A stretch of 64,000 nucleotides of DNA from Escherichia coli (GTDB taxonomy: Bacteria; Pseudomonadota; Gammaproteobacteria; Enterobacterales; Enterobacteriaceae). The notes beneath the pieces are model-generated. The model saw only the letters and a program-made list of their open reading frames with translations. It was not told the DNA's origin and did no database searches. Position numbers and translations under genes: made by a program. The stretch lies in assembly GCF_050320075.1 (NCBI RefSeq), contig NZ_CP190018.1; one strand, written 5' to 3'. Below are positions 6,789-15,050 of this stretch, piece by piece. Every line of letters starts with the position of its first letter. Position 1 is the first letter of the stretch.

Positions 6789-7162
6789 GATTTTTGGCAC
6801 GAGAGTAGTTTAATTGAGCCTGTAACTGTATGATTTTAAAGATGTAGATTAATTGAGTTTTGAAATCGTATATCCAAACGTATAACTAAAATGATTTGCT
6901 GCAAAAATGTACAGCTTTAACCGTTATCATTTTCCGGCTATTCGCTATGAAGCTGGCTGGTGGATAAGCACGGATAACCTGACATCTACAGCCGCCTTAA
7001 AAGCTGAACCCGACAAGCATATCGGCATCATGCCCACCAGCGTGACGCATTTTTTTAATTGCGCGGGCGTAAAAATTTGACGGGGCGGACAGTTCCATAA
7101 GTAATGGATTGCAGGAATTTCGCCCCCCCTCCTGAATGCAATTTTTCGTATATATATACAAA

Positions 7163-7290
7163 ACCACCCGTCCCACCTGTCCCGCCTGTCCCACTGGCAC
7201 CTAACAAATTGATTTTGTTAGAAATAAATTAGGTAAGGTAGGACAAGTCCAGGCTGTTTTGGGACAAGTTGGGGGGGAGGTGGGACAAGT
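7163..7290. repeat. Iteron block 1: three GTCCC units at ~10-bp spacing, 8-bp palindrome CTAACAAA-N5-TTTGTTAG, three GGGACAAGT units at ~21-bp spacing
   Basis: Read directly: TCCCACCTGTCCCGCCTGTCCCA at 7169-7194; palindrome at 7201-7221; G(G)GACAAGT at 7241, 7261, 7282. Confidence 0.6.
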
Positions 7291-7824
7291 CGAGCGAGTG
7301 AATCAAGCCGTGTTAGCGCGGTAAAGCGACAGTGCCGCCGCAATTTTGCGTTGTCGGGAGGCCACCGTAACAGCCACCATACGCGCACAATCTTCGGTGG
7401 TAACGCAATCCAGACGTGCGCAACATCCCCAGATAGGAAATCATTACCTAGCACAGCTAATTGCGCCAGAATCGATTACAGCGCGTTTCTGTGGCATTCA
7501 AGAACGGCTATCACTAGTGTATTGATATGTAATCCGCATATGAGTTTAAGCAACAAAATGATCCCCTTTCGAAAAAGGCACTAACCGTTTTTTCCGAAAT
7601 GATCCGTTGGTGATTTTGTAACTTATTGTTTTGTAGATGTAATTTTAAACTTGATAGGGTTATAAATAGGGGGCGTTTTTGTCAAGAATTGCAAATAATG
7701 CTCGTTTATTGTTCTTTGTTTGTTTGTTTTCTGTTCGTTGATGGGGGATCATTTTGCACTTTTTGGGGGATCATTTCGGAGGGGGGGGGCTGGCAACACG
7801 CCAGCACCCTCGATGCGTTTGTTT

Positions 7825-8034
7825 TTAGCAGTACTCCCAGTCTGTGGCTAGTAGGCTCTCAGGAGATAGCGTAACGCTATCCTCTGTGACGGGATTCAAC
7901 GCAATCAAATCGTTTCCGCGCCGTTCGAGAAAGACGATGTACGGAAGATGCCAGGCACTGCGGCGAGCTGGCACGCGTCGGCCTGGCTGCAACTTGTCGA
8001 GAATATCCACCAGCGAAACGTTCATGTGATTCAA
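7825..8034 (-). CDS. Hypothetical small protein (69 aa with TTG start; 66 aa from internal ATG)
   Basis: ORF with AGGAG about 5 nt upstream of the TTG; last gene of the ssb-finO-perC cluster; no recognisable family. Confidence 0.35.
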   Translation of the reverse strand: MNHMNVSLVDILDKLQPGRRVPARRSAWHLPYIVFLERRGNDLIALNPVTEDSVTLSPESLLATDWEYC

Positions 8035-8090
8035 AAAACTCCTGAAACGCTCTACAACTCAATAACACAAAAAATAATGCAGAACTGCCA

Positions 8091-8375
8091 CTATAAAACC
8101 TTGTCTGTCTGGTAGTTCCGCCAGACAGATTTTGCGATTTCTATCCCCATATCCGCCTGTGTGCGGTGTGCTGCCTCTCTCAAGCTCCCGAAATTATCCA
8201 GCATGACGGGCGAACGTGCTGCCTTGTGGATACATTTCGCGCGACGCTTTACTGCCTGTTCGCGCTCCTTATCGGTGTTCACCTGTTGCATGACCTCAGC
8301 CCATCGGGCCGCCGCTCTCCGGTACAGGCCTTTAGCCTCCAGATCTTCCGCTTTGCTGTCGTGAATCATACTCAT
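8091..8375 (-). CDS. PerC-family transcriptional activator-like protein (94 aa)
   Basis: Motif EDLEAKGLYRRAAARWAEV resembles the PerC family signature; start ATG overlaps stop of upstream gene (ATGA coupling). Confidence 0.5.
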   Translation of the reverse strand: MSMIHDSKAEDLEAKGLYRRAAARWAEVMQQVNTDKEREQAVKRRAKCIHKAARSPVMLDNFGSLREAAHRTQADMGIEIAKSVWRNYQTDKVL

Positions 8376-8908
8376 ACGCCAGCTTGCTCCTTGTTCGACT
8401 TACGTTTGCGCTTCTCTTTCAGTGCCATCAGTCGTGCTTCCGCGTCCTGCTGTTCCTGTTGTGTCACCTCGCCGCATGGCTGGCTATTCAGATCGTAACG
8501 CACGCCACCAGCCATTAAGGCACGGTAATAACGCGGAGAATGAGCATAAGATGCTAGCGCCGCACGTAATGCCCCTGACCCAAAAGCCAGCGCCCTGACG
8601 GCAATATCCTGTATCAGGTCTTCAAATATTCCTACCTTAAGCGGCTTCGGTGATTCCAGGCTGAATAATTCAGGCCATAGTTCAATAAGACGGTTAACGC
8701 GCCTGCGGTTTTTGCCCTGGCGTTTGGTCATATGCCGCCACGGTGTCGCCCCTGTGGGCTTCTGTTTGCGGCTCTGCTGTGCGTTCTGATTGCCGGGTAT
8801 CACTTTATGCGCTGATGTGGTTTTATCCTGCTGCTGTGTCGTCTGTGTCTTTTTCTGTGGTATGCCGTAAATGCCTTTCGGTTTTCTGCTAATAGTCAGT
8901 GTAGTCAT
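8372..8908 (-). CDS. ProQ/FinO-domain RNA-binding protein (178 aa) with basic low-complexity N-terminal extension
   Basis: C-terminal two thirds align by eye with E. coli ProQ N-terminal domain (PLKVGIFEDL..., LRAAL.SY..S.RY...GG.RYDL...PCGE). Confidence 0.6.
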   Translation of the reverse strand: MTTLTISRKPKGIYGIPQKKTQTTQQQDKTTSAHKVIPGNQNAQQSRKQKPTGATPWRHMTKRQGKNRRRVNRLIELWPELFSLESPKPLKVGIFEDLIQDIAVRALAFGSGALRAALASYAHSPRYYRALMAGGVRYDLNSQPCGEVTQQEQQDAEARLMALKEKRKRKSNKEQAGV

Positions 8909-8943
8909 TATTTGTTAACCTCTGTTAGTGAATCCACTGGCAG

Positions 8944-9369
8944 TTAAAATGGTATTTCGTCCTCATACGGGTCATCCTGCTGGCCCGTCTGCTGCTTTGT
9001 TCTGTTCAGTGCGTCAGTAGCCTGCCCTTGCTGTCCTTTCCTGCCTCCTGGTCGCACGGTTCGCGCACTGATTACGCTGCCTGCGATGACCTGCCAGCCC
9101 TGCCGCATTTCCCCGTTCTGGTCTGTCCACTGGCTTATCTGCATGTTACCCGCCACGCTCACCAGTTCGCCTTTCTGGTGTTTTGCCAGTGCATCGGCCT
9201 GTCTGCCAAACGCCAGGACGGATAACCACATCGTCGCTGTTCCGTCATATGCCTGACTGCACGGAAGGGGAACAGCCATACTCACCAGCGCCATTGGTGT
9301 TCCCTTGCTGGTGGTTTTTAACTGCGGGTCAGCCACCAACCGCCCGTAAGCTGATATTTGTGCCGTCAT
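8944..9369 (-). CDS. ssb: Single-stranded DNA-binding protein (SSB-like, 141 aa)
   Basis: OB-fold pattern similar to E. coli SSB (W..V.AFG, WTDQNG) and acidic C-terminal tail EDEIPF (cf. DDDIPF). Confidence 0.6.
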   Translation of the reverse strand: MTAQISAYGRLVADPQLKTTSKGTPMALVSMAVPLPCSQAYDGTATMWLSVLAFGRQADALAKHQKGELVSVAGNMQISQWTDQNGEMRQGWQVIAGSVISARTVRPGGRKGQQGQATDALNRTKQQTGQQDDPYEDEIPF

Positions 9370-9444
9370 ATTGTCTGCTCTCCGGTTTTAAATGTTGGTT
9401 GGATTTTTAATGTCCACCAGCCAGGCAAAAAATAACGCCTGCTG

Positions 9445-9580
9445 ACTTGTCCCAAAATGCTCCTAACTTGTCCCAAAATCACCTTAACTTGTCCCGCTCT
9501 TGTCCCACTTTTTCTGATATTACCCAATATAATTCAGTATGTTATGTGTGTTTCTCACAGGTTGGGACAGGTGGGACAAG
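9445..9580. repeat. Iteron block 2: four ACTTGTCCC units (~21-bp spacing) plus GGGACAGGTGGGACAAG; inverted copy of block 1
   Basis: ACTTGTCCC at 9445, 9466, 9487; TTGTCCC at 9500; GGGACAGGTGGGA at 9564-9576 is the exact reverse complement of TCCCACCTGTCCC in block 1. Confidence 0.6.
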
Positions 9581-9605
9581 AGTCTTTAAACCTACACGCG
9601 AGAGA

Positions 9606-11741
9606 TTAACCACCTTCATCATCATGATCCTGTGCAAGTAAAAGGCCGTACACCCTTAGTCGTGCCCCCTTCATGTGCTTAAGACGTGGTGTTCTGATTT
9701 GCCATCCTTCCCCGCTGGCTGGCTTTTTCAGCATTCCGGCTTCGTGAAGGGCTCTTGCTACGGCATCCTTGTTAAATCCCTTCGCCACATGCGATTTAAA
9801 TGGCTCCGGCAGGACGTAAAACAAAACAGGCTCACCGTAACGCCCCTCGCTTTCCCTGTAGCCGTACAGTTCTGAAATCGGCAGGCTTGCAGGGTCATAA
9901 TTGACAGGCGCAAACCTGCTCATGCCGTAGGCAGTAAGAAATGCCTCTGCCTGTTCAATAATCTGCCTGTGTTCCTTGTTACCCGTGCCGAACTCCTTCA
10001 CCCAGGCATTAAAGTTATGCTGAATGGCATCACAGCACGTCTGAACATTCCAGCCCGTAACATGACCGGACAGCACAAGCGCGGCCTCCAGTATGGCGAA
10101 TCGTTCCCCTACGCGATGAACCTGTTCGCCGTAGCTCTCCGGTATTAGGTTGCGCCACCGTTCACGGCACGCCCTTACCGTGTCCTTAGCCTCCTGCTGG
10201 TGGGCTGCCAGCCATTTAACCCATTCACGACCCGCCGCCCCGTGGTTTTCTGTCCAGGCGGCTTTTAACGCGTCTGCGTGCGCCTTTCCTGTGCTGTATT
10301 CGTGAAACTGCGTAGACTTCTCCATCGGCACGTTAAGCAACCTGACAAGCTGCCCCGCCTTGACTTTTATCCCCTCACTTTTGAGGAATGTTTCAACATC
10401 CATTTCTCCGGTACTGATCGCCACCGTGCGCCAGTGTTTTATCTCCCGGTTGCCGCCGTCCTTCGCCCCCTGTAATTTCCCGGAACCGTTAAACAGCGTA
10501 TAGGCTGACGTGGACACCTCCCGCGCGTTTCCGGCCTGGCCTATTTCATCCAGGGGTAACAGCCCGTCGTTGTGCGCCTCTGCCTCGTTAGCGATACCTA
10601 ACGCTGTGCCGTACCAGGTCAGCCGTTGCGCGTCCGGCTCTCCCCATAAACTTGATGCGATGTTCTGTGTGGTGGTTTTCCCTGCCGATGATTGTTCGAA
10701 AAGATGTACCCCGAAGCCGTCAGCGCCCACCAGCCCGATTAATGGTGCTGATAACGATACCGCCACACCCAGCATCATGGACGGATTACCACCAGCCAGT
10801 CGCGCCACTGTATCGCGCCAGCCCTCTGTCGTTCCTGCTACGGAATAACCATTAACGGCAGCCGTTTTTCCGGTAAACAGGATCGGTTTTTCAGACTCAC
10901 CAATGACTGAACCGTCCGGCATGATGTACGCGCCAAAATGCCACCCCGTTGTTGTGCTTAACTGCCATTCCTCATGGTTTCCGTTTAACTGCATCCAGTC
11001 AGCCAGGATAGCCCTGTATTTGCCGTTGGTTGTCACATTGAGTCCGTGGTCTTTCAGCAGCCGCCAGCCGTCACGGTCGCCAATGCCACCGCACGGGATC
11101 GCCATTGTGATGACTTCATGATTTGCTAATTTTTTCCAGCGCATCACGCGGTAATGCTCTTTACCGATCGTTCCCGTTCCCAGTAGTTCAAGCGGGGAAC
11201 ATAACCACGCCTCAGGCCGGATAATTTCGCCTGACTGTTTGTCAACTTTGGGCGTTACCCAGAAAACACCATCGGCGCGACTTTCAACGCGGGGTTTTAA
11301 TTCATCATCGCCCTGGCTTTCTGTGATTTTTTTCTTTAAGGGCAACACCAGACTTTCCCCGCGCTCGTATTCGTCTTTGAGGCGAGGCAACTGGTCGGAT
11401 AAATCCGCCGGGCTGGTGTCAGTTATCCCCGCATATTCGTATACGGTCTTCACGCCAGCCACAGCCAGCAATGTGACGATCTGTGTAAGGCTACGTTCAG
11501 TGATGTGCCCTGCGCGGTAAACACGCACACACTGACGGCTATCATCAATAATCTGATAACCGGTAATATCTTTCAGGTGTTCATCTGACAGAACGACAGG
11601 CGGCACATTGTCGGCGGCAATATGCTTACCTGCCCATTCCTGCCACTCTTTCGCATGGCTCCACGCATCACTACCCGCAAAAATGATAACCTCCGTCATT
11701 TTGTCGGCTGGCTGGTGCTTTAAGTTCGGTGCGCGTTTCAT
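9606..11741 (-). CDS. Replicative primase-helicase (TOPRIM-like N-terminus plus P-loop NTPase, 711 aa)
   Basis: Walker A-like SSAGKTT, large size, position downstream of int/alpA as in P4 alpha-type and PICI pri-rep genes; start overlaps upstream small ORF. Confidence 0.75.
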   Translation of the reverse strand: MKRAPNLKHQPADKMTEVIIFAGSDAWSHAKEWQEWAGKHIAADNVPPVVLSDEHLKDITGYQIIDDSRQCVRVYRAGHITERSLTQIVTLLAVAGVKTVYEYAGITDTSPADLSDQLPRLKDEYERGESLVLPLKKKITESQGDDELKPRVESRADGVFWVTPKVDKQSGEIIRPEAWLCSPLELLGTGTIGKEHYRVMRWKKLANHEVITMAIPCGGIGDRDGWRLLKDHGLNVTTNGKYRAILADWMQLNGNHEEWQLSTTTGWHFGAYIMPDGSVIGESEKPILFTGKTAAVNGYSVAGTTEGWRDTVARLAGGNPSMMLGVAVSLSAPLIGLVGADGFGVHLFEQSSAGKTTTQNIASSLWGEPDAQRLTWYGTALGIANEAEAHNDGLLPLDEIGQAGNAREVSTSAYTLFNGSGKLQGAKDGGNREIKHWRTVAISTGEMDVETFLKSEGIKVKAGQLVRLLNVPMEKSTQFHEYSTGKAHADALKAAWTENHGAAGREWVKWLAAHQQEAKDTVRACRERWRNLIPESYGEQVHRVGERFAILEAALVLSGHVTGWNVQTCCDAIQHNFNAWVKEFGTGNKEHRQIIEQAEAFLTAYGMSRFAPVNYDPASLPISELYGYRESEGRYGEPVLFYVLPEPFKSHVAKGFNKDAVARALHEAGMLKKPASGEGWQIRTPRLKHMKGARLRVYGLLLAQDHDDEGG

Positions 11742-12025
11742 TTCTTGCCCCCAGTAACCAGCATTTCGCGGATTTTGCGGATATATCTTGCTGCACGGTT
11801 CTGATTTACGGTTTCACGATGATCCACCAGCGTAAAATCACGCTGGAACTGATAAACAGGCATCACGCAGTCATATTCGTATCCTTCACGGCGGTAGGTC
11901 ATGCGTCGTTCACTCACGCCCTTAATCATTACCGTGCTGCCGTATTTATCGCGGTAAATATCGCCGTGCATGAATTCAGGACGAGTTTTACCGCTGGCAG
12001 TAAAGCCAGAATTTTTTGCTTTCAT
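11738..12025 (-). CDS. Hypothetical protein (95 aa), translationally coupled to primase-helicase
   Basis: ORF stop overlaps primase start codon; coding-like composition; no family recognised. Confidence 0.45.
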   Translation of the reverse strand: MKAKNSGFTASGKTRPEFMHGDIYRDKYGSTVMIKGVSERRMTYRREGYEYDCVMPVYQFQRDFTLVDHRETVNQNRAARYIRKIREMLVTGGKK

Positions 12026-12064
12026 TTATCGAATTACGTTTTTGTTAAAGCTGTATTAATGAGA

Positions 12065-12250
12065 TTAATGAACTGTCGCCACTTCAATTACGGCACGGAT
12101 CATCACCTGCGTGAACCCACAGCCGATTAACTCTTCTTTCAATATTGCGATAGCTGCATTAACGCTGGTGGCGTTCACGTTTTGCTGATTATCAATAACG
12201 TGGCCTTGATGATTTACAGCGCGTGCGGTTATCTGAAATCGCTTAAGCAT
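12065..12250 (-). CDS. Hypothetical small protein (61 aa)
   Basis: ORF preceded by GGGGTGAGG SD-like sequence; start overlaps stop of upstream small ORF. Confidence 0.4.
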   Translation of the reverse strand: MLKRFQITARAVNHQGHVIDNQQNVNATSVNAAIAILKEELIGCGFTQVMIRAVIEVATVH

Positions 12251-12431
12251 GCCTCACCCCCTGACGAATACGGGCAGCGAATACAGCAACACAGCCGGAC
12301 GGGCAACAGTTACGCGCTTCTCGTTCGGTTGATGCCTCGACGTGAACAATACGGGAATCAGTCGGATTAAAGATGACAAAGCGCCAGATAAATGTGTTTT
12401 GAGAATGTTCGAGGGTAGGGGTAGTAGCCAT
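12243..12431 (-). CDS. Small protein (62 aa), possibly Icd-like (host cell division inhibitor-like) as annotated in P4-like elements
   Basis: Strong SD AGGAGG 7 nt upstream of ATG; FIWRF and FAAR motifs recalled from Icd-like annotations (memory-based, uncertain). Confidence 0.45.
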   Translation of the reverse strand: MATTPTLEHSQNTFIWRFVIFNPTDSRIVHVEASTEREARNCCPSGCVAVFAARIRQGVRHA

Positions 12432-12640
12432 TTGGCAGCCTCCTGTAACGTTGGGATATACCCACCGCCGGAGGTGGTAAGCTCGATGGCGGTGGACTGT
12501 ACAGGGTTACCACAACTGGTGTTACAGGAAACCAGCCTGACCGAAGTCAGCCCCATACAGCCCACCATTGATAAGGCGTGCGCGTGCGCCGATACAAAAA
12601 AAGACGCCTGGCGCGTCTGTATCGCCTGTAACTCCAGCGG
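12432..12640 (-). ncRNA. Candidate structured regulatory RNA / leader (P4 immunity-like seqA-seqB-seqC arrangement)
   Basis: On the minus strand: GTTACAGG (12632-12625), intrinsic terminator, UUCG-tetraloop hairpin (12550-12537), complementary CCTGTAAC (12528-12521), then GTTACAGGAGG (12449-12439) overlapping the SD of the first ORF. Confidence 0.3.
12595..12618 (-). terminator. Intrinsic terminator inside the leader region (AGACGC-loop-GCGTCT followed by T7 on minus strand)
   Basis: 6-bp GC-rich stem, 5-nt loop, run of seven T on the transcribed strand. Confidence 0.5.
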
Positions 12641-13077
12641 GGTGGTAATCCCGACACCCGTTTTATGAGGTGCGCAGGGAGTATATCCCGTTTTCTTGCT
12701 CATGTGGTCGGATGTGTTGAAGGTGTGCCCACCACACAAATCACATTGCTCACCAGCCGGAAATATGGCATTGTTGGCGATGCATTCAAGTTTAATATAT
12801 GCCTTCTGGCGACCCTCTGCGGTCGCCTTTGTTTTATTCGTAAGCAACATATTTCTTTTGTCGTTTAAGCTATGCGATTGTACGTTTCCGTTTAAAACGG
12901 AAGTGCTATTAGTTCAATTAATTCGTTCGTACGGTTTGAACTGAATAATAACATCAGCCATAATTTTTTATGGTTGAACGAAAACCTGCCCCTGTTTGGG
13001 CATTTTTGCCAGTATTCATAATGTTCTCTCTTAATTGTTTTGTTGCTTGATAGTAATCAGGCCAGCGTTAATCACAC

Positions 13078-13269
13078 TTATGCTTCACGAGTTTCTCTCT
13101 CACGTTCTTTCAACCAGGCGAGTACCTCATCTTCATACCAGCCAATGCGACGCAGCCCGATACGGAATCCTTTGGGGAACCCGCCTTTGTTAACCATCTC
13201 CGTTAGGGTCGAATCAGATTTAATGCGTAGCAAGGCCTTTACCTCTGGTCGTAAAAGAATAGCCCTCAT
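13078..13269 (-). CDS. alpA: AlpA-family phage transcriptional regulator / excisionase-like (63 aa)
   Basis: Small HTH protein with LLR..EV......S.ST......G.FP....IG.R.IGW...EV..WL pattern; position between integrase and replication genes. Confidence 0.7.
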   Translation of the reverse strand: MRAILLRPEVKALLRIKSDSTLTEMVNKGGFPKGFRIGLRRIGWYEDEVLAWLKERERETREA

Positions 13270-13474
13270 CCTATTTCTCCTCTGGACAGCAAAATATCGC
13301 TTTTTGAATGAAAATAACGGTAAGTAATGTAATAAGCATACAAATCTATAAAAAAGACAGTCAAGAATTATTTAATAAGAGCTATGTGATTGGTTATTTT
13401 TTAATTTTCTAACATAAAAAGAATTTAAATGTTTCTCAAAATGAGACAGTATTGAGAAAGTAATGAGACACAAA

Positions 13475-13506
13475 TTAGCTCCTAACTGATACCAATTAGG
13501 AGCTAA
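13475..13506. promoter_or_regulatory. Perfect 11-bp inverted repeat TTAGCTCCTAA-N10-TTAGGAGCTAA in the AT-rich int-alpA intergenic region
   Basis: Read directly; lies just downstream of int stop and upstream of alpA promoter region; could be int terminator and/or operator. Confidence 0.35.
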
Positions 13507-13522
13507 TAATTTTTTAAATATT

Positions 13523-14767
13523 TTATTTTATTCCGCGTAATCCTCTGTGCCCGCTGGCGATGGTTGTTCCGGTTGCGGCTGCTTCCACAAAATCACCCCA
13601 CCAGCACATTAACACTTTACGTTTTTCCAGGTAGTTGCTTCGGTTGTATGCCCGTCTAACTTCGTTTGTGTCCACGTGGGCTAGTGCGGCTTCGATCACG
13701 TCAGGTTCAAATCCTTCTTCATTCGCCGCCGTGCTGAATATTGCGCGTAGTCCGTGAGATACCAGCACACCAGCGTAACCCATTCGTCGTAATGCTGCGT
13801 TTGCTGTCTGGCTGCTCATTGATTGCACTGGATTTTTAAGACTTGGGAAAACATGCTCCCTTCGTGCGCTAATCGGCTTCATGGCTTCAAGCACTGCCAT
13901 CGCCTGAGCGCAAAGGGGGATCACATGATCACGGCGCATCTTCATGCGTCCGGCTGGTATCGTCCAGGTTGCCGCCTCAAGGTTGATTTCTTCCCACCGT
14001 GCGGCGGAGGCTTCGGCTGGGCGGGTTGCGGTTAACAACTGCCACTCAATCAGCAATCTGGTTTGCCGTTCTATGCTGGCGATCGATAAATCGTGCATTA
14101 GCTGCGGTAGTTGTTCCGGTCGGATGGTTGGCATGTGCTTTTTGGTGGGGGAAGGGAATGCCTTGCGAACGTTCGCGGCGGTGTTGATGTCAATCAGTCC
14201 ACTGTTGGCAGCAAAATCCATCACTTCATTGATGCGCTGTAAAACGCGTTTCAGTGTTTCCAGGTTGCCACGTGCCTTGATGGGCGTGAGTATCTCAACA
14301 AAGCGGCGAGCGGTGAGAGTATCTATCGGTGTGTTTCCGATATACGGGAATACATATTTCTCTAGCGAGCGCCAGATGTCCTTGATCGTATTGTGGGCGA
14401 GATTCTGGTTTTTTTTCATTTCGTACCACAATGCGGCCACATTTTCGAACGTGTTGCCCTGTCGTCGAGCCTCTGCTTCGAGTTTTTGCCGTTCGTATTC
14501 CTGCGGGTCGGTTCCTGCCGCAATTAACGTCCTGTACTCGCTACGGCGTTTTCTGGCATCAGCCAGGGAGACTTCATCAAGCGAGCCCAAACTAATGATT
14601 GTTCGTTTTTTGTTCGATGGTCGATAGTAGTTGAATCGCCATAGTTTCGAACCAGACGGCTTAATAACGAGAAAAAGCCCGCCGCCATCCTGTAAGGTGT
14701 ATTCTTTTTCCGCTGGTTTAGCTGCTTTGATCTGTGTGGTGGTGAGTGGGGTCGCCTTTCTTGCCAT
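13523..14767 (-). CDS. int: Tyrosine site-specific integrase, P4-type (414 aa)
   Basis: N-terminal arm-binding-like domain (LTTTQIKAAKP...GGGLFLVIKPSGSKLWRF), C-terminal catalytic region with HGLRA and terminal tyrosine region; adjacent to tRNA gene. Confidence 0.85.
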   Translation of the reverse strand: MARKATPLTTTQIKAAKPAEKEYTLQDGGGLFLVIKPSGSKLWRFNYYRPSNKKRTIISLGSLDEVSLADARKRRSEYRTLIAAGTDPQEYERQKLEAEARRQGNTFENVAALWYEMKKNQNLAHNTIKDIWRSLEKYVFPYIGNTPIDTLTARRFVEILTPIKARGNLETLKRVLQRINEVMDFAANSGLIDINTAANVRKAFPSPTKKHMPTIRPEQLPQLMHDLSIASIERQTRLLIEWQLLTATRPAEASAARWEEINLEAATWTIPAGRMKMRRDHVIPLCAQAMAVLEAMKPISARREHVFPSLKNPVQSMSSQTANAALRRMGYAGVLVSHGLRAIFSTAANEEGFEPDVIEAALAHVDTNEVRRAYNRSNYLEKRKVLMCWWGDFVEAAATGTTIASGHRGLRGIK

Positions 14768-14973
14768 ACGTTTATGAATCCACGGGAAAAAACAGGTTCT
14801 AGTTATACGGATTTAGCTATGCGCCAGCCCGTATAACTAAACATATAACTAAAAAAAACGGCTGAAAACCACTGTTACCGTCGAATAACGATGACTAAAA
14901 ACAATAAAAAAACCCGCTATTCAATGAATTAGCGGGCTTATTTCATAAAAACGATAATTAATAATGGGCGATT

Positions 14974-15050
14974 TGGTCGGCACGAGAGGATTTGAACCTC
15001 CGACCCCCGACACCCCATGACGGTGCGCTACCAGGCTGCGCTACGTGCCG
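14974..15050 (-). tRNA. proL: tRNA-Pro (anticodon GGG), 77 nt with encoded CCA
   Basis: Reverse complement reads CGGCACGTAGCGCAGCCTGGTAGCGCACCGTCATGGGGTGTCGGGGGTCGGAGGTTCAAATCCTCTCGTGCCGACCA; cloverleaf with GGG in anticodon loop. Confidence 0.9.

Follow-up and report, generated by a model that had tools for sequence, protein, structure and literature searches.

The replication origins of phage-inducible chromosomal islands (PICIs), like those of the Staphylococcus aureus pathogenicity islands (SaPIs), are described as one compact region after rep, in which iterons flank AT-rich DNA. Downstream of rep, SaPI origins have 6-12 iterons, which oppose each other across an AT-rich centre (PMC9371898). 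In Escherichia coli, the island EcCICFT073 has a pri-rep-ori segment that drives plasmid replication (Fillol-Salom et al. 2018, PMC6092414). Here an island of this kind is analysed in a stretch of 64,000 nucleotides of E. coli DNA (contig NZ_CP190018.1 of assembly GCF_050320075.1), called the window below. The window is chromosomal and 100% identical to strain YZLc1-3. The subject is a pair of iteron blocks in the island, one of which directly follows the gene for a DUF927 Rep protein. The two blocks are probably the two lobes of a PICI replication origin, split by 2.1 kb of cargo, and the lobe next to rep is likely the main origin.

Another described system with spaced iteron clusters is P4 (NC_001609). 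Its crr lies directly 3' of alpha and consists of a pair of 120-bp units. In each unit, two iterons spaced 9 bp apart are followed by a ~35-bp spacer and then by inverted iterons. The P4 ori is 4.7 kb away.

An origin of the PICI type is already known, and the block next to rep is in itself ordinary. The compact description does not fit the DUF927 Rep family, which is found from E. coli to Actinobacillus. The origin in this family appears to be made of two mirror-image lobes, each a complete unit, which have repeatedly been pulled 1-9 kb apart in evolution with neither of them lost. No description of two separable mirror-image lobes for this Rep family was found in the searchable literature, which leaves out most subscription papers. 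With the same limit on the literature, none was found of a common and stable split form that has cargo or rep between the lobes.

Layout of the two blocks

The blocks B1 (7149-7291) and B2 (9412-9580) are mutually inverted, and they bracket orf69, perC, finO and ssb. Both are built from a single 9-bp iteron, GGGACARGY, which is used either head-to-tail, with abutting units, or at a two-turn spacing of 21 bp. Each block has two opposed iteron arrays around a core of 69-70% AT, in an island that averages 51% AT. The lobes are mirror images of each other, with their 21-bp arrays face to face. B1 is the distal lobe and B2 the proximal one, as seen from rep. The parts of both are given in Table 1.

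This clustering is beyond chance. All seven exact copies of CTTGTCCC in the window fall in the blocks, where 1.5 were expected, and not one of 100 shuffles reaches seven. The pentamers GTCCC and GGGAC occur 47 times in the window, and 11 of these are within the 317 bp of the blocks. The rest of the window predicts 0.18 there (Poisson P ~1e-16). An Rfam scan gave no matches in or between the blocks.

An earlier sequence-only reading of this stretch had described inverted repeat blocks that bracket ssb-finO-perC. The blocks are there, far beyond chance, but several details of their layout have to be redrawn. It was right that GGGACAGGTGGGAC (9564-9577) exactly matches GTCCCACCTGTCCC (7170-7183) in reverse complement. 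It also placed B2 immediately 3' of the rep gene, and B2 indeed ends 28 bp from the rep stop codon at 9606. Three GTCCC units had been given a spacing of 10 bp. These units in fact abut at 9 bp (7170, 7179, 7188), and the B2 pair at 9564 and 9573 does the same. The helical-turn spacing claimed for the tandem units does not hold.

The 21-bp arrays had been read as three equal units in B1 and four in B2. The spacing in B1 stands, but its first unit is AGGACAAGT in this strain, where other E. coli strains have GGGACAAGT. In B2 three units of ACTTGTCCC are 21 bp apart as described, but the fourth, CTTGTCCC, comes 11 bp after the third (core to core, from 9488 to 9499). An 8-bp palindrome reported for B1 is absent. 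Instead, the AT-rich core holds TAACAAA/TTTGTTA, an inverted repeat of 7 bp whose arms are 5 bp apart.

Iteron copy number differs among E. coli strains, and the cores are conserved. Strain AL.H8 has two 9-bp units in the outer array of B1, versus three here, and strain MB51 has one extra 11-bp unit in B2.

Related loci with joined and split lobes

The comparison covers 72 loci that encode relatives of Rep, taken from species-representative genomes with limited flanking DNA (8-kb flanks). Iterons begin 20-50 bp past the rep stop codon in almost all of them. There are at least 12 iteron words, which go by lineage: GGGACAAGT, GGGACRACA, GGGATAAGT, GGGCTAA, TAACCCAC, TAACCCGT, TGAACCAAC, TGAACCGA, GAGACAACA, CCGACAA, GCGGGACA, GGACTA and GTAACCA. 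Following the motif across related islands, as had been proposed from the sequence, bore out that iterons follow rep and that both lobes use the same word.

E. coli STEC367 (L002) has a larger island at the same site as the window, with a Rep that is 84% identical. There B1 and B2 have homologues that directly adjoin each other (L002 7510-7830). From rep onward come B2, B1, hyp80, ssb, finO and perC, with the ssb-finO-perC module beyond both lobes. When the window is aligned with STEC367, homology breaks off exactly at the inner edge of each block. This means that the window differs by 2.1 kb of cargo, located at the centre of what is elsewhere a single, roughly palindromic origin of ~330 bp.

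Within E. coli, this contiguous form is found in 24 genomes, all of them with the STEC367 allele (65-68% identity). The exact island form of the window occurs, colinear, in ~53 of 5426 complete E. coli genomes. The relative with a TOPRIM-DUF927 Rep occurs in hundreds.

About 30 of the 72 loci have 10-14 iterons within at most 420 bp, all with the same strand pattern. This runs from an outer 9-bp array, an AT core and an inner 21-bp array to a second inner 21-bp array, a second AT core, a second outer 9-bp array and finally a TATATA box. Another 26 loci have just one lobe after rep, with 4-6 iterons in ~100-130 bp. Ten of these 26 have a further lobe 1.1-7.8 kb downstream, of mirror-image design and with an identical iteron word. 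One is L004, from E. albertii, which is the same island as that of the window. L054 has the word GGGATAAGT, and the other eight (L020, L022, L026, L027, L036, L059, L064 and L074) have TGAACCAAC. In L058 and L061, both from Pasteurellaceae, the second lobe is upstream, and rep itself lies between the lobes.

Every split locus examined has the same iteron in both lobes, in a constant relative orientation. The cargo between them is variable: ssb, finO, perC, and tape-measure-like, lysin-like and ejection-protein genes. ORFs (open reading frames) of 584 aa between the lobes of L020 and L036 were considered as a second rep and rejected, being tail, tape-measure or lysin-like cargo. The suggestion of a bipartite origin in the sequence-only reading is supported, and the arrangement recurs. 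Many relatives have the lobes side by side, and others, at least 12 loci besides the window, have them 1-9 kb apart.

Some 'single-lobe' loci may be an artefact of flank length. L018 appeared to have a single lobe, but its E. coli twin UPEC132 has a second one 8.6 kb off, beyond the flank that was fetched. This distal lobe of UPEC132 is ~2 kb from the island end. The ends of the islands in other loci were sought with shared 13-mers, which gave an att repeat in L048 alone, the att cores being too short for this method.

From E. coli to Actinobacillus, the 9-bp array of the distal lobe has a TATATA-type box on its outer side, at a constant distance of ~9-12 bp. The length of its TA repeat varies between E. 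coli strains. The box is also present in L020, L022, L026, L036, L059, L063, L064, L074 and L084.

A separate feature of the TGAACCAAC-type loci L020, L022, L036 and L074 is a conserved direct repeat, with two copies of GTAAGACAG located ~40-60 bp inside the distal lobe. The window does not have this repeat, which is probably the site of another DNA-binding protein.

Rep and how it may use the lobes

The profile of Rep matches the structure of SaPI Rep (8tch, E 4e-19) and that of the SCCmec helicase Cch (5dgk). Both of these are self-loading MCM-like initiator-helicases. Rep belongs to this SaPI Rep/Cch family, with an AAA+ core and a C-terminal winged-helix domain, and is predicted to load itself likewise. 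That domain has the same winged-helix fold as in SaPI Rep, and SaPI Reps read their iterons with it (PMC9371898).

A full-length AlphaFold2 (AF2) model of the window Rep was discarded, since its predicted confidence (pLDDT) was below 50 across the ATPase core. The 130-residue N-terminal domain of this Rep (9606-11741) folded confidently (pLDDT ~90), and the TOPRIM domain of its 918-aa relatives (for example L084 14240-16996) is absent.

The iteron word tracks the C-terminal domain. At similar core identity, pairs of Reps of the same iteron class gain 0.13-0.27 in identity in windows of residues 610-709 of the protein, and at most 0.09 elsewhere. The Reps of L005 and L008, where the word is TAACCCAC, are 78-81% identical to the window Rep in the core and only 38% in the C-terminus. 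For L007, L048, L052 and L054, which have the related word GGGATAAGT, the core identity is 73-77% and the C-terminal identity 61-66%. The basic 'wing' segment of the domain also differs by iteron class.

Read as replication iterons, which is what had been proposed from the sequence, the repeats are well supported: iterons follow rep in the relatives, their word goes with the Rep C-terminal domain, and the same position is functional in EcCICFT073 (PMC6092414). Most likely, the rep-proximal lobe is the main origin and the distal lobe a second Rep-loading or auxiliary site. Each lobe alone has the complete design of a SaPI-type origin.

In this split-origin account, AlpA-driven induction would come first. 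Hexamers of the island Rep would then bind the iterons of both lobes via their C-terminal winged-helix domains, melt the 70% AT cores and load themselves. The mirror symmetry of the lobes would place the helicases in opposite orientations. The analysis establishes the architecture, its conservation, the matching iterons of the two lobes, the covariation of the iteron word with the Rep C-terminal domain and the fold of that domain; Rep binding, core melting and firing at both lobes are inferred.

Several observations weigh against this account. Physical linkage of neighbours could account for part of the covariation between the Rep C-terminus and the proximal iterons. Distal lobes lie kilobases from rep, however, and in every lineage they have the word of their proximal partners, which argues against linkage of the rep 3' end to adjacent DNA as the whole explanation. 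In addition, ~12 loci show a proximal lobe alone within the fetched DNA, and it may be that one lobe suffices; yet the one such case that was followed further had its other lobe 8.6 kb away. A gene start is often found 15-30 bp past the TATATA box, and the distal lobe could be mainly a Rep-controlled promoter.

The last of these points concerns the protein. The window Rep is without the TOPRIM domain that longer relatives have, and PHROG 1139 aligns to it only from profile position 284. The homologue in UPEC132 is a 918-aa 'TOPRIM and DUF927' protein. A 'primase' is therefore not established, and the label 'primase-helicase' that the gene had been given from the sequence assumes an activity that should not be assumed.

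A stronger form of the split origin is a tentative one, and rather doubtful. The lobes could form a separable two-lobe machine, in which Rep hexamers at mirror lobes up to ~9 kb apart act together, by looping or as two coordinated origins. Cargo modules would then be embedded in the origin, and the TATATA box would couple Rep occupancy to the next gene. If true, a self-loading MCM-like helicase needs no adjacent double-hexamer site.

Among the rival explanations, the one that survives best is an obligate two-site origin in the sense of P4 ori and crr. Neither lobe would fire alone, and Rep bound at both would loop out the 2.1 kb of cargo before melting. P4 does need both ori and crr, 4.7 kb apart, and the build of a crr unit is close to that of a single lobe here. 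All split loci examined have also kept the distal lobe, with matching iterons and a fixed relative orientation. But both arrays and an AT-rich core are already present in each lobe, making it a complete SaPI-type origin (PMC9371898), and the simple insertion of cargo at the centre would equally preserve orientation. By BLAST, Rep is moreover unrelated to P4 alpha. A two-site requirement is unlikely.

Only the proximal block might be an origin. The distal block would then be a Rep-responsive operator or promoter, or a copy-control site that acts by titration or handcuffing, coupling Rep occupancy to the gene after the TATATA box. The fixed distance of the box from the 9-bp array fits this, and a gene starts 24-42 bp past the last iteron of the distal array in L008, L013, L020, L047, L055, L056 and L074. 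UPEC132 has the box and then perC, with a TATAAT ~30 bp upstream of perC. In STEC367 the box stands ahead of the hyp80-ssb-finO-perC operon.

The distance of the box is, however, fixed to the iterons and not to the next gene. Across the loci that gene is 24 to more than 200 bp away, and some loci have no ORF within the 260 bp searched. No intact gene follows the box in the window, and a promoter scan does not call the TATATATATA box of the window a promoter. The distal lobe also retains the full mirror-image design, including an AT-rich core that would be superfluous for an operator. An operator or copy-control site in place of a second lobe is quite improbable, and the box itself could be either a promoter -10 element or an intrinsic element of the origin.

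It is very improbable that the blocks are recombination or inversion sites, as the sequence-only reading had offered as an alternative, or operators for another island regulator (AlpA, PerC or a product of the Ash/Icd region): they are mutually inverted and bracket a gene module, but a repeat finder limits their inverted relation to the 9-bp units, where complementarity of the arms is just 76% in a stretch of 51 nt. The segment runs colinear with the window in all 53 E. coli genomes that have it entire, and no inverted variant was seen among the 5426 complete genomes. Iterons come after rep irrespective of the genes beyond them, and they vary with the C-terminal domain of Rep. In EcCICFT073, ssb and perC are similar, but Rep is of another type and the iterons differ.

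The split-origin account turns the relatives into a natural test set for how self-loading helicases of the Rep/Cch/MCM-like kind are placed for bidirectional replication. It also opens questions: is one lobe enough, do the lobes communicate, and does their orientation matter? For annotation, a practical rule follows for satellite origins, which is to seek a second lobe that shares the iteron and has a TATATA box.

The island and the known systems

Judged by its sequence, the island is a Gram-negative PICI of 8.2 kb, a phage satellite of the EcCI type. It occupies ~6797-14988, at tRNA-Pro, between yejO and yejM. Its gene order is int, AlpA-like helix-turn-helix (HTH) regulator, ash-pseudogene region, icd-like gene, 61-aa ORF, DUF4222, DUF927 Rep, iterons, ssb, ProQ/FinO and PerC. 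Every island gene is on the minus strand, and transcription runs in one direction, away from int, with an alpA regulator present. A P4-type integrase goes together with att core repeats in tRNA-Pro next to yejM, a site used by EcCIs. Finally, rep is followed by an origin of iterons that flank AT-rich DNA, with B2 starting the series 28 bp past the rep stop codon.

Table 1. Features of the island and of its two iteron blocks, as positions in the window
Feature	Positions	Strand	Remarks
attR core GGCACGAGAG	6797..6806	no strand	direct repeat of tRNA-Pro 3' end; island end adjoining yejO
TATATATATA box	7149..7158	no strand	just outside the B1 9-bp array
B1 (distal lobe) outer array	7170..7192	-	three abutting 9-bp iterons, GTCCC cores at 7170, 7179, 7188
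B1 AT-rich core	7194..7240		47 bp, 70% AT; holds inverted repeat TAACAAA-5-TTTGTTA
B1 inner array	7240..7290	+	AGGACAAGT, GGGACAAGT, GGGACAAGT at 21-bp spacing
Cargo between lobes	7292..9405	-	530-bp non-coding stretch with four GGGATCATTT repeats, orf69, perC, ProQ/FinO, ssb
orf69	7825-8034	-	weak match to phrog_7206 (E 1e-6); conserved with island
perC	8091-8375	-	
ProQ/FinO	8372-8908	-	
ssb	8944-9369	-	
B2 (proximal lobe) inner array	9412..9506	-	degenerate TGTCCA at 9412; ACTTGTCCC at 9445, 9466, 9487; CTTGTCCC at 9499
B2 AT-rich core	9508..9562		55 bp, 69% AT
B2 outer array	9564..9580	+	two abutting 9-bp iterons, GGGACAGGT and GGGACAAG (9564, 9573)
rep	9606..11741	-	711-aa DUF927 initiator-helicase; C-terminal winged-helix domain at ~residues 600-711
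icd-like gene	12243-12431	-	
AlpA-like helix-turn-helix regulator	13078..13269	-	63 aa; phrog_66/2790 (excisionase and transcriptional regulator); RefSeq: HTH regulator
P4-type tyrosine integrase	13523..14767	-	NF007246, E 6e-166
attL core GGCACGAGAG	14979..14988	no strand	within 3' end of tRNA-Pro(ggg) 14974-15050

Arm-type repeats for the integrase are near both island ends, at 6867-6905 and 14830-14868. Between attR and B1 there is also a 57-aa ORF on the plus strand (6907-7080), which is 100% conserved in E. albertii. The pseudogene that RefSeq assigns to the 'ash family' contains two Rfam matches on the minus strand, to C4 antisense RNA (12485-12572, 78.7 bits) and to isrK (12597-12673, 61.6 bits). 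They sit just upstream of the icd-like gene at 12243-12431, which makes this a c4-icd immunity cassette of the P1/P4 type inside a PICI.

The non-coding part of the cargo, 7292-8090, had no match among 50,697 phage records. It occurs in 74 E. coli genomes only, all of this island family. Within it, the GATC-containing repeat GGGATCATTT is present four times, at 7556 and 7597 (-) and at 7745 and 7767 (+), flanking 138 bp of 70% AT (7607-7744). A run of nine G's follows at 7780-7788. This set of repeats (7556-7776) is a second structure with inverted repeats around an AT core, made from another word than the iterons. A packaging site is one candidate role for it, and a region bound by some other protein is another.

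Remnants of the island also exist. Several E. coli genomes (H20/L003, H31, H90-H95, H118-H120) retain B1 alone with part of the adjacent non-coding DNA, beside yejO. In MRE162 an IS3 element is located at the would-be start of perC. Elsewhere, a truncated integrase arm-binding fragment abuts the B1 remnant.

RefSeq annotations of the island include neither terS nor capsid genes. A lambda-type cosN, GGGCGGCGACCT, was not found in the island with up to two mismatches, save for a chance-level match inside int. EcCICFT073 (L078 16297-16310, E. coli CFT073) has AGGTCGCCGCCC, the reverse complement of lambda cosN, ~65 bp upstream of its last small gene. The window island is without such an EcCICFT073-type cosN, so its packaging route, if any, must differ.

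EcCICFT073 is among the closest described systems. Its genes run int, alpA, icd-like, DUF4222 and pri-rep; then come an intergenic origin of 290 bp, a hypothetical gene, ssb, perC and capsid genes. EcCIs at the yejM site appear in Table S1 of PMC6092414, and EcCI11128, whose Rep is different, is found at this same tRNA-Pro site. Given the same gene order and the yejM site, the window island is a PICI of a known kind, with B2 in the canonical origin position. The two islands share their type, their order of genes, an origin immediately 3' of rep and iterons that flank AT-rich DNA. The 290-bp origin of EcCICFT073 also shows a two-lobe iteron pattern. They differ in the Rep, which is a 584-aa 'DNA primase family' protein in EcCICFT073 versus the DUF927 allelic type of the window, and in the iteron word. 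The published origin is moreover one contiguous region, whereas the lobes of the window are 2.1 kb apart with ssb-finO-perC between them.

With SaPI Rep and SCCmec Cch (8tch, 5dgk), the likeness is in the protein and in the design of the origin: a homologous helicase core, the same C-terminal winged-helix fold, and opposed iterons around an AT centre. The hosts are Gram-positive, however, and the DNA sequences are unrelated. SaPI origins are also a single iteron/AT-rich/iteron unit. The window has two such units, which are mirror images and separable.

P4 resembles the window island in having two separated clusters of one iteron type, one of them directly 3' of the replication gene and near attP. 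A crr unit is like one lobe. The int of the island is in turn of the P4 type, its regulator is AlpA/Vis-like, and it has a C4-type RNA together with an icd-like gene. But Rep has no detectable similarity to alpha (the best BLASTP hit of Rep against P4 alpha has E 1.5), and the type I iteron of P4 is TGTTCACC, where the window has GGGACAAGT. The crr units of P4 are direct repeats, and its ori is upstream of the alpha operon. The P4 genes sid, delta, psu and epsilon are absent from the RefSeq annotations and the PHROG/NCBIfam matches of the island, which were not complemented by a dedicated search with P4 proteins.

The sequence-only reading had drawn on P4 for comparison. Membership of the P4 family was rejected, given the lack of similarity to alpha and the other iteron. 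In its logic the split origin resembles P4 ori/crr, but the island is not a P4 family member; it is a member of the Gram-negative PICIs.

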